NCBI RefSeq assembly: GCF_001677475.2 | Contig: NZ_CP015229.1 | Reading direction: 5' to 3' (one strand) | Source: Escherichia coli | GTDB lineage: Bacteria; Pseudomonadota; Gammaproteobacteria; Enterobacterales; Enterobacteriaceae | Length of the DNA stretch: 64,000 bases | Part shown: piece after piece, positions 52,563 through 54,683 of the stretch | How positions within the stretch are numbered: position 1 is the stretch's first letter | Layout of the letters: each line of letters starts with the position of its first letter | The notes under the pieces: generated by a model | The model's database searches: none | The model's input: the letters and a program-made list of their open reading frames with translations, nothing else | What the model was told of the DNA's origin: nothing | Made by a program: the position numbers and the translations under genes

Positions 52563-52778
52563 ATGAAATCAATGGATAAGTTAACAACAGGTATCGCCTA
52601 TGGCACATCGGCTGGTAATGCTGGTTTCTGGGCATTGCAGTTACTCGATAAAGTAACTCCGTCACAGTGGGCTGCAATCGGTGTGCTGGGTAGTCTGGTT
52701 TTTGGCCTGCTGACATATCTGACAAACCTTTATTTCAAGATTAAAGAAGACAGGCGTAAGGTTGCGAGAAGAGAGTAA
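52563..52778 (+). CDS. Phage holin (phage 21 S-type pinholin, EssQ/EssD-like) with dual-start motif
   Basis: ORF track 71 aa; [66 protein letters not shown]. Confidence 0.85.
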
Positions 52779-52782
52779 TCCA

Positions 52783-53334
52783 ATGACTCAAGACTATGAA
52801 CTGGTTGTGAAAGGAGTTCGCAATTTTGAGAATAAAGTGGCGGTAACTGTAGCCTTACGGGACAAAAAACACTTTGACGGTGAAATTTTTGACCTGGACA
52901 TCTCGCTGGACCGTGTTGAAGGTGCCGCGCTGGAGTTTTATGAGGCAGCAGCCAGAAGGAGCATCAGACAGGTCTTCCTGGATGTTGCTGCCGGGTTATG
53001 TGAAGGGGATGAGCAGTCGCCGGAAAAGCGCCCCATAATTTTAGAGGCGCAGAATGTGTGGATAACCTACAAAGGAAAGCTACCGGGAAGAATTACTGGT
53101 TCTCTGAAGACGCCACCGACGGCATTGCGGTCAGAAAAAGATGATATTGAATCGCCCATTGAAAAACTGGAGGGCAGCGTCGCTGATCTGAATAAAAAAT
53201 TGTCGGTGCTGATTCCTTCTGAAGATGAAAAAAAACGCCGCGATGAGCAGTTTGCGGCGTTTTACGATTATTGCATTGAAGTTACTCGCAGGAATTTTGT
53301 GAAGATTTTTGAGGAGGGTAAATCTCTTCAGTAA
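52783..53334 (+). CDS. Hypothetical protein inserted between holin and endolysin (183 aa)
   Basis: ORF track 52762..53334; ATG at 52783 just after holin stop; no recognised domain. Confidence 0.45.
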   Translation: MTQDYELVVKGVRNFENKVAVTVALRDKKHFDGEIFDLDISLDRVEGAALEFYEAAARRSIRQVFLDVAAGLCEGDEQSPEKRPIILEAQNVWITYKGKLPGRITGSLKTPPTALRSEKDDIESPIEKLEGSVADLNKKLSVLIPSEDEKKRRDEQFAAFYDYCIEVTRRNFVKIFEEGKSLQ

Positions 53335-53542
53335 GCTTATTGGCGGACGCTGCAATTAATTCAGGAAGGTCCGCAAGGTCATCTGTCAGTGGATATGATG
53401 AAAAATCGGCGGCAGTTCTGTTAAGAAGCGCTTTAACTAATTCCTTTTCCTTCTCCGGCAACAAGTTGATTAGAGCTACGACTGCTTGCCTGAGTGCGAT
53501 TAAATCAGCAAAAGTTTGTTTTGGTAGATTTGTGTAATCCAT
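53282..53542 (-). CDS. Hypothetical acidic protein (86 aa), convergent with and overlapping the preceding gene
   Basis: ORF track; ATG at top with GAGG RBS; 3' end overlaps 3' end of 52783..53334 by ~50 nt. Confidence 0.4.
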   Translation of the reverse strand: MDYTNLPKQTFADLIALRQAVVALINLLPEKEKELVKALLNRTAADFSSYPLTDDLADLPELIAASANKLTEEIYPPQKSSQNSCE

Positions 53543-53655
53543 AGTCGCCTCGGTGTTTATCAGATTGACATCCTCCTCCCGCCAGTGCCCATCACTGGTG
53601 AGGTAAGATTTAACATATCCGGGGATTTGAAGCCGATAAATCCTGATAAATATCC

Positions 53656-54189
53656 ATGAACGTAAAAATCAGATACAGCCTGTCGGCCGCTGTTCTGGCA
53701 CTGATTGCCGCCAGTGCTCCTGCCCCTGACATTCTCGATCAGTTTCTGGATGAAAAAGAGGGGAATCACACCACTGCATACCGCGATGGCTCCGGCATAT
53801 GGACCATCTGTCGGGGAGCAACGATGGTGGACGGTAAACCTGTTATTCCGGGAATGAAACTGTCGAAGGAAAAATGCGCCCAGGTTAACGCCATTGAGCG
53901 GGATAAGGCGCTGGCATGGGTGGAGCGCAATATAAAAGTTCCACTGACCGAGCCACAGAAAGCCGGTATCGCGTCATTCTGTCCCTATAACATTGGCCCT
54001 GGTAAGTGTTTTCCGTCGACGTTTTATAAGCGGCTTAATGCCGGTGATCGTAAAGGCGCATGCGAGGCGATTCGCTGGTGGATAAAGGACGGTGGACGTG
54101 ATTGCCGCATTCGTTCAAATAATTGTTACGGTCAGGTTATTCGTCGTGACCAGGAGAGTGCATTAACCTGCTGGGGGATAGAACAGTGA
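53656..54189 (+). CDS. Phage endolysin, glycoside hydrolase 24 lysozyme with N-terminal SAR segment
   Basis: ORF track 177 aa; [27 protein letters not shown] hydrophobic N-terminus; lysozyme core [20 protein letters not shown]. Confidence 0.85.
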
Positions 54190-54683
54190 ATCAGATATTC
54201 ACGGTGATTTTGCTCGTGTTGGTAGGATTTGTCGTAGGTAATGTCTGGAGCGACAGAGGATGGCAAAAAAAATGGGCGGAGCGTGATGCTGCCGAATTAT
54301 CTCAAGAGGTAAATGTCCAATTTGCTGCTCGAATAATTGAACAGGGGCGAACTATATCCCGTGATGAGGCTGTTAAAGATGCACAACAGAAAGCCGCTGA
54401 AATTTCTGCCAGGGCTGCTGATCTGTCTGATAGTGTTAACCAGCTGCGTGCCGAAGCAACAAAATATGCCATACGCCTTGACGCAGCGCAGCATACCGCA
54501 AATCTTGCCGCTGCCGTCAGAGGCAAAACAACCAAAGCCGCCGAAGGAATGCTCACCAACATGCTCGGAGATATTGCAGCAGAAGCTCAGCTTTATGCTG
54601 AAATTGCTGACAAACGCTACATCGCAGGAGTGACTTGTCAACGGATTTATGAATCTTTAAGAGATAAAAAATATCAGATGTAG
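54186..54683 (+). CDS. Rz-like i-spanin
   Basis: ORF track 165 aa; N-terminal [20 protein letters not shown] then coiled-coil; overlaps endolysin stop. Confidence 0.65.
54379..54633 (+). CDS. Rz1-like o-spanin lipoprotein embedded in +1 frame of Rz
   Basis: ORF track 54337..54633; lipobox LTSC, proline-rich mature part. Confidence 0.5.

Follow-up and report, generated by a model that had tools for sequence, protein, structure and literature searches.

Here, we analysed a lysis gene cassette of Escherichia coli located in a 64,000-nt stretch of contig NZ_CP015229.1 (assembly GCF_001677475.2), hereafter referred to as the window. The cassette turned out to be a Qin-type module of the order essQ-ydfR-rrrQ-rzpQ/rzoQ and the orthologue of the module found in prophage Qin of E. 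coli K-12. We regard it as very likely that it serves a lambda-like prophage as the lysis module of its late operon and that it works by the scheme of pinholin, signal-arrest-release (SAR) endolysin and embedded spanins; the cassette is probably functional and lysis-competent. In this study, we computed the anatomy of the genes, their families and orthologues, their intactness and how closely they match isolated phages, whereas the formation of pinholes, the tethering and release of the SAR endolysin and the action of the spanins would follow the paradigms of phage 21, lambda and 933W. An earlier annotation of the same DNA (hereafter the original prediction) had described a complete phage-21-type lysis cassette; we found that this label holds for one of its components.

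The open reading frames (ORFs) of the holin S, the endolysin R and the spanin subunits Rz and Rz1 were recovered from the ORF listing and by direct reading exactly where they had been placed before (Table 1). Neither frameshifts nor premature stops were found in the four frames, whose lengths of 71, 177, 165 and 84 amino acids (aa) equal those of the K-12 homologues, and all lysis ORFs have their full length in comparison with K-12, 933W and phage PhiR63_1. Comparison with homologues hence revealed no disrupting mutation, and the intactness assumed in the original prediction was confirmed. Its description of the cassette as complete needs to be restricted in one respect: all lysis frames are intact, but they are not contiguous, since a ydfR-like gene and an antisense ORF, orf86, had been overlooked between S and R. 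Both lie in the 877-bp gap from 52779 to 53655 (ORF listing and direct reading), the ydfR-like ORF starting 4 nt past the stop codon of S, and these two extra ORFs explain why the cassette spans 2121 bp compared to 1171 bp for S-R-Rz of phage 21. Further downstream, the GTG start codon of Rz overlaps the stop codon of R. Family searches were performed against Pfam, PHROGs and NCBIfam, with an additional PADLOC scan for the YdfR-like protein and the orf86 product. In PHROGs, the families holin, endolysin and 'Rz-like spanin' cover all four lysis proteins; the NCBIfam search of the cassette proteins yielded nothing beyond a weak, sub-threshold endolysin match.

S matches PF04971 ('Bacteriophage P21 holin S') with 116 bits (gathering cut-off of 26; E=7e-34) and is 82% identical to S21, the holin of phage 21, in a gap-free alignment across 71/71 residues. 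The postulated dual start MKSMDK could be read directly from the sequence, with Met1 at 52563 and Met4 at 52572 and predicted products of 71 aa (antiholin) and 68 aa (holin); phage 21 has the identical MKSM dual start. In an alignment of five homologues, M1, M4, G40, S44 and G48 turned out to be invariant. The first transmembrane domain (TMD1, residues 8-28) consists to 57% of Gly, Ala, Ser and Thr (G/A/S/T), a value equal to that of S21, and TMD2, with 35%, carries a G40xxxS44xxxG48 face. The predicted RNA fold of the translation-initiation region was no better than that of shuffled controls, neither in the window (z=+0.89) nor in phage 21 (z=-0.66). As a side observation, the 173-187-aa database proteins P0111, P0116 and P0128 join PF04971 to DUF1327 and resemble S-YdfR fusions or read-through calls.

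R is a phage lysozyme according to Pfam (PF00959, E=2.6e-24), with the catalytic triad E35-x8-D44-x5-T50 at the positions known from R21, the endolysin of phage 21, and with matches to the Protein Data Bank (PDB) entries 7m5i, 3hde/3hdf (R21) and 4zpu (RrrD). At its N-terminus, the basic residues K4 and R6 precede an uncharged, Ala/Ser-rich segment (residues 7-24), of which 56% are G/A/S/T, compared to 65% in the corresponding segment of R21 and 61% in that of 933W R. The proposed SAR-like N-terminus on a lysozyme fold was thereby recovered. The only Cys residues of R are found at positions 52, 74, 109, 118, 136, 150, 157 and 172. P1 Lyz and Lyz103 are SAR endolysins under thiol-based control; the lack of any Cys before residue 52 argues against such a control in R and for the R21 type. 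SAR endolysins have been characterised by two to three basic residues followed by an uncharged, Gly/Ala/Ser/Thr-rich transmembrane segment (PMC9239132), a description which fits R with regard to its basic residues and uncharged segment. By descent, R is nonetheless only distantly related to R21 (34% identity over 147 residues): the pairwise comparison did not support a close orthology of the two and R instead groups with RrrQ of Qin and with 933W R, to which it is 90% identical. The latter has been listed, and employed in release assays, as a SAR endolysin by the Young laboratory (PMC9239132), and genomic studies of Shiga toxin (Stx) phages predict the same pairing of a pinholin with a SAR endolysin (PMC8136144; PMC10462455). 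Taken together, R likely behaves as a SAR endolysin, which would be tethered to the membrane and freed upon depolarisation. An AlphaFold2 model of R built on a 5-sequence alignment was too poor to place the SAR helix (mean predicted local distance difference test score, pLDDT, of 52.9 and approximately 32 at the N-terminus). The gene evolves under strong purifying selection, with a ratio of nonsynonymous to synonymous substitution rates (dN/dS) of 0.10 compared to its homologue in phage PhiR5_1.

The spanin pair displays the embedded two-component architecture, in which an inner-membrane subunit (i-spanin) with transmembrane segment and periplasmic domain encloses an out-of-frame gene for the outer-membrane subunit (o-spanin). 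Rz carries at its N-terminus a strong transmembrane segment (residues 4-22). It has a single periplasmic Cys151 and PF10721/DUF2514 as its only match in Pfam (E=1.9e-38), and belongs to phrog_312 ('Rz-like spanin'). Rz1 has no Pfam match, but was found in phrog_11621, which is likewise termed 'Rz-like spanin'. As its start is offset by 193 nt from that of Rz, Rz1 is read in the +1 frame, and it covers the range of 0.39-0.90 of the Rz length, a position within the range published for some 70% of embedded spanins (PMC6139136). The lipobox LTSC occupies residues 20-23 and is followed by Val at position +2, so that Rz1 lacks an inner-membrane retention signal. The mature lipoprotein comprises 62 aa with 9 Pro, all of them within the first 40 residues; the proline-rich Rz1 lipoprotein of the original prediction, wholly inside Rz, was thus recovered in every detail. 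With Cys36 and Cys40 of mature Rz1 and Cys151 of Rz, residues for putative intermolecular disulfides are on hand. When the overlap of the window was compared with that of K-12 or Tritos, 6 synonymous and 3-4 nonsynonymous substitutions were counted in the Rz1 frame and 2-3 synonymous and 7 nonsynonymous substitutions in the Rz frame. The Rz1 frame is the better conserved one, which is the direction expected of a true embedded gene, albeit on small numbers. By analogy with known spanins, Rz and Rz1 would form a complex that disrupts the outer membrane. Sequence similarity to the spanins of phage 21 was not significant in BLASTP (E=0.11 for Rz and 1.1 for Rz1): Rz and Rz1 of phage 21 and of 933W belong to the lambda-type families PF03245 and PF06085, those of the window do not. 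During this analysis we noticed that Rz1 (rzoQ) is unannotated in the RefSeq records of strains A22, CFT073 and M114 and in the record of PhiR63_1; the curated K-12 record is the only one to list it.

How, then, is the cassette related to known systems? When 5426 complete E. coli genomes were searched with megablast, 5156 yielded matches to parts of the region. The identity amounts to 100% in A22, A32 and M114, strains in which the NCBI annotation pipeline (PGAP) uses the names essQ, 'YdfR family protein', rrrQ and rzpQ. Prophage Qin of K-12 (b1556-b1553, b4689) shares the gene order and also both flanks, with cspF, cspB and ynfU upstream and cspI, ynfN and gnsB downstream, and its proteins EssQ, RrrQ, RzpQ and RzoQ are 96%, 93%, 90% and 95% identical to S, R, Rz and Rz1, respectively. 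The two modules differ in ydfR, which in K-12 encodes 103 aa and abuts rrrQ, but is replaced from codon ~69 in the window and encodes 183 aa; the two genes are orthologous only over the first ~68 codons. They also differ in their surroundings: Qin is cryptic, whereas the prophage in the window looks complete. Among isolated temperate coliphages, PhiR63_1 (PV340573) is the closest relative, with 99.9% identical cassette DNA including the insert between S and R, 100% identical S, YdfR and R proteins and an Rz that differs in one residue (99%). It is followed by 2H10 (LR595862/NC_049950), whose cassette DNA is 99.4% identical, again including the insert. PhiR63_1 was deposited as a complete phage genome with ECOR13 as laboratory host, and its GenBank record together with the later use of the panel in plaquing experiments (PMC13190303) suggests that it forms plaques.

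Phage 21, represented by the curated lysis annotation of OL657228, resembles the window in its homologous holin, in an endolysin of the same fold with an N-terminal SAR-type segment and in the embedded +1 architecture of its spanins. In contrast to the window, its genes S-R-Rz are contiguous, with neither ydfR nor orf86, and its Rz and Rz1 are unrelated in sequence. In the Stx phage 933W, the order is S-R-ant-Rz/Rz1 with ant between R and Rz, and the holin is 76% identical to S but starts with MYQM and lacks Lys2. The 933V-like phage PhiR5_1, in turn, shares the long DUF1327 C-terminus, orf86 and the segment upstream of R with the window. The cassette is hence a mosaic of a P21-family holin, a 933W/Qin-family endolysin and a DUF2514-family spanin. 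The proposed alignment with the proteins of phage 21 thus supports the label 'phage-21-type' for S (82%), but not for R (34%) or for Rz and Rz1, which fall into other families: by descent, only the holin is of the phage 21 type, R is a distant homologue and the spanins share the architecture, not the family.

Transferring the paradigms to the window, lysis would proceed as follows. The start pair of S would yield two forms by analogy with phage 21, an antiholin from Met1 (71 aa, with the extra Lys2) and a holin from Met4 (68 aa), both of which would build up in the inner membrane. At the programmed time, the weakly hydrophobic TMD1 would exit the bilayer and TMD2 would oligomerise into small pinholes, which are expected to be tight for the endolysin, but to depolarise the membrane by collapse of the proton-motive force. 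By then, R would have been exported via Sec, and its N-terminal SAR segment would hold it in the membrane in an inactive state; upon depolarisation, R would be freed into the periplasm, where it would refold and cleave peptidoglycan by means of E35, D44 and T50. After loss of the cell wall, the Rz-Rz1 complex would disrupt the outer membrane.

Table 1 Features of the lysis cassette and the antiterminator gene (positions refer to the window).
Feature	Position	Strand	Description
S (essQ-type class II holin/pinholin)	52563-52778	+	71 aa, PF04971
ydfR-like gene (DUF1327)	52783-53334	+	183 aa, PF07041
orf86, putative gene	53282-53542	-	86 aa, phrog_2572
R (rrrQ-type lysozyme, predicted SAR endolysin)	53656-54189	+	177 aa, PF00959
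Rz (rzpQ-type i-spanin)	54186-54683	+	165 aa, GTG start, PF10721/DUF2514
Rz1 (rzoQ-type o-spanin)	54379-54633	+	84-aa lipoprotein precursor inside Rz, phrog_11621
Mosaic segment, 657 bp	52989-53645		blastn breakpoints vs Tritos, K-12, PhiR5_1
Q-type antiterminator gene (ydfT/quuQ-like)	48214-48966	+	250 aa, intact ORF

The prophage itself is lambda-like and integrated between yjjG and prfC. Its Q gene, called ydfT antitermination protein in the near-identical loci of A22 and M114, would presumably drive late transcription through cspF/cspB/ynfU into S. Downstream of the cassette, the ORFs for small and large terminase, portal, S49 protease and decoration protein remain open up to where the window ends. 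From 39001 to 57293, the window is 99.7% identical to PhiR63_1. A sharp mosaic junction was observed at 57293: upstream of it, the sequence is 99.9% identical to strain A22 and phage PhiR63_1, and downstream the terminase-portal-protease-head genes represent a different lambda-like allele from that of A22, PhiR63_1 and 2H10, which is 99.8% identical to M114. In the latter strain, the near-identical prophage is complete between yjjG and prfC and free of structural pseudogenes.

Several points weigh against a functional lysis module as proposed here. The orthologous module of K-12 sits in a cryptic prophage, and the window ends before the tail genes of the prophage studied here. Late transcripts have to cross an antisense ORF and the terminator-like hairpins at 49074-49092 and 52092-52111. 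The ATGA by which the stop codon of ydfR and the start codon of R overlap and are coupled in K-12 and Tritos is absent, and an obvious Shine-Dalgarno sequence was looked for in the region upstream of R, where a 113-bp spacer precedes the gene, but none was seen. Lastly, a candidate AAS|A site in R is compatible with a cleavable signal peptide, which sequence alone cannot discriminate from a SAR segment. Missing coupling, missing Shine-Dalgarno sequence and read-through of the hairpins are unlikely to block function, as isolated phages have the same features.

These points can be condensed into three alternative explanations. The cassette could be a domesticated or cryptic remnant like Qin, which is kept or merely tolerated by the host, e.g. 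with expression under cold stress together with the flanking csp genes, and which has ceased to serve the release of phages. The state of Qin itself speaks for this possibility, as does the wide distribution of module parts over E. coli genomes, many of which surely carry defective prophages, and an up-regulation of the ydfR cluster under cold stress has been reported (PMC13232886); in addition, the tail region is outside the window. We nevertheless consider a remnant unlikely, given that the Q gene and the packaging and head ORFs are intact in the window, that an identity of 99.7% to the isolated phage PhiR63_1 extends over 18 kb, that M114 harbours a complete near-identical prophage and that R is under strong purifying selection. 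A defect might also reside within the cassette, if the 657-bp segment between S and R uncoupled or dampened the expression of R, by lost coupling or by antisense transcription of orf86, and lysis became defective or strongly delayed. The spacer in place of the overlap of K-12 and Tritos and the missing clear Shine-Dalgarno sequence would be in line with such an effect. However, both this segment and the sequence preceding R recur in PhiR63_1, 2H10 and PhiR5_1, all of which were deposited as complete phage genomes, with laboratory hosts listed in the records of PhiR63_1 and PhiR5_1, and this explanation appears highly unlikely to us.

The remaining alternative concerns the control of R, which might be secreted by way of a cleavable Sec signal peptide instead of being anchored by a SAR segment and would then not be controlled by membrane tethering. 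Its hydrophobic core is short (L9-A21, 13 residues) and small residues at positions -3 and -1 (A18-A19-S20|A21) could make a signal peptidase I site. On the other hand, a Pro at +1 blocks the best AXA motifs (ASA|P and APA|P) and the G/A/S/T content of the segment is like that of known SAR domains. Moreover, R is partnered with a pinholin, through which an enzyme in the cytoplasm cannot escape, and in release assays the highly similar R of 933W serves as a SAR endolysin (PMC9239132). Secretion by a cleavable signal peptide is therefore quite improbable, and a SAR-type control of R is the reading that we follow.

What might the YdfR-family gene and orf86 do, if anything, within the lysis operon? 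This is the thread that remains from our analysis. The 183-aa ORF matches PF07041 (DUF1327, YdfR family) with E=2.6e-42 and phrog_2091 over residues 1-183/183; phrog_2091 and phrog_2572, the latter matched by orf86 over residues 1-86/86, are PHROG families of unknown function. A family alignment shows that about 112 N-terminal residues of YdfR proteins are conserved and that these are followed by alternative C-termini, resulting in total lengths of 103-296 aa. In A22, CFT073 and M114, PGAP reports ydfR as a 112-codon pseudogene ('YdfR family protein, incomplete, missing C-terminus'), although the ORF is open and encodes 183 aa; given the variable C-termini of the family, the pseudogene call looks like an artefact. 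In the AlphaFold2 model (mean pLDDT of 52.8), only a beta-beta-beta-alpha N-terminal domain reached values of about 70-80, and Foldseek found nothing in the PDB at E<=0.001 (TM-scores <0.27). For orf86, no match was obtained in Pfam, NCBIfam or PADLOC, and the PADLOC scan assigned neither the YdfR-like protein nor the orf86 product to a defence system. All orf86 homologues stem from E. coli except for one weak match in Salmonella, and full-length copies are at least 77% identical. Its dN/dS is 0.68 compared to PhiR5_1, a value based on 13 substitutions only and similar in the other frames. PGAP annotates orf86 as hypothetical protein in CFT073 and M114. The label 'DUF1823' on the copy in PhiR5_1 could not be reproduced by Pfam at E<=0.01.

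Blastn and alignment showed that the window tracks Qin of K-12 and Tritos up to 52988 and again from 53646, 10 nt upstream of the start of R. In between, 657 bp with the alternative ydfR C-terminus, orf86 and the spacer upstream of R replace ~92 bp of the Qin arrangement, and the same segment is present in PhiR5_1, whose holin is 76% identical to S. Since the window matches Qin outside and shares the inner segment with PhiR5_1, the locus is a recombination mosaic with a junction inside ydfR. An origin of the gap from an insertion sequence or transposon was rejected, as no transposase is present and the mosaic, attributed to homologous recombination, is shared with 933V-like phages. The divergence from PhiR5_1 is only 5% in the orf86 region, compared to 18% in the adjoining R, which points to a mosaic segment that has spread recently. 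We also noticed a perfect hairpin (CCAGTG-n5-CACTGG) at 53582-53598 in the spacer between orf86 and R, which is conserved in PhiR5_1 and not terminator-like because no T-run follows.

We propose that the slot between S and R is recombinationally variable and that the long ydfR and orf86 are its accessory cargo, dispensable for the lysis scheme. For YdfR of K-12, two-hybrid and co-purification experiments demonstrated binding of the N-terminal 72 residues to the catalytic half of RNase E, and RNA was co-purified with the protein (PMC13232886). It is conceivable, but in our view improbable, that the slot goes beyond passive cargo and constitutes a regulatory layer of lysis timing in Qin- and Stx-type phages. 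In that case, the long YdfR-family protein, which shares this N-terminal domain and would be produced from the late transcript along with the lysis proteins, might modulate the decay of host or phage RNA late in infection, and the antisense orf86, or transcription of its strand, might restrain leaky endolysin expression in the lysogen.

The module is already known and nothing new in kind; it belongs to the commonest prophage gene sets of E. coli. With a mechanism that would be textbook lysis by pinholin, SAR endolysin and spanin, its significance beyond correct annotation is slight. Still, two consequences for annotation arise: the mosaic nature of the cassette makes the label 'phage 21' unsuitable, and automatic annotation of identical loci drops the embedded Rz1 and flags an open 183-aa ydfR as pseudogene. 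The intact cassette and its near-identity to isolated phages suggest that induction of the prophage can lead to lysis of the host, which bears on strain stability and gene transfer.

Some observations concern the neighbourhood of the cassette. Cold-shock paralogues bracket it, with a cspF-like gene at 51082-51294 (-), a cspB-like gene at 51595-51810 (+) and a cspI-like gene at 55043-55258 (+), and ynfU, ymcF/ynfQ, ynfN and gnsB are located nearby, as in Qin. The two terminator-like hairpins mentioned above are on the + strand: the one at 49074-49092 follows just after Q and is a candidate for tR', and the one at 52092-52111 lies between cspB and S. In the chromosomal part upstream of the prophage, three tandem tRNA-Leu(CAG) genes were found at 31765-32087 (-).

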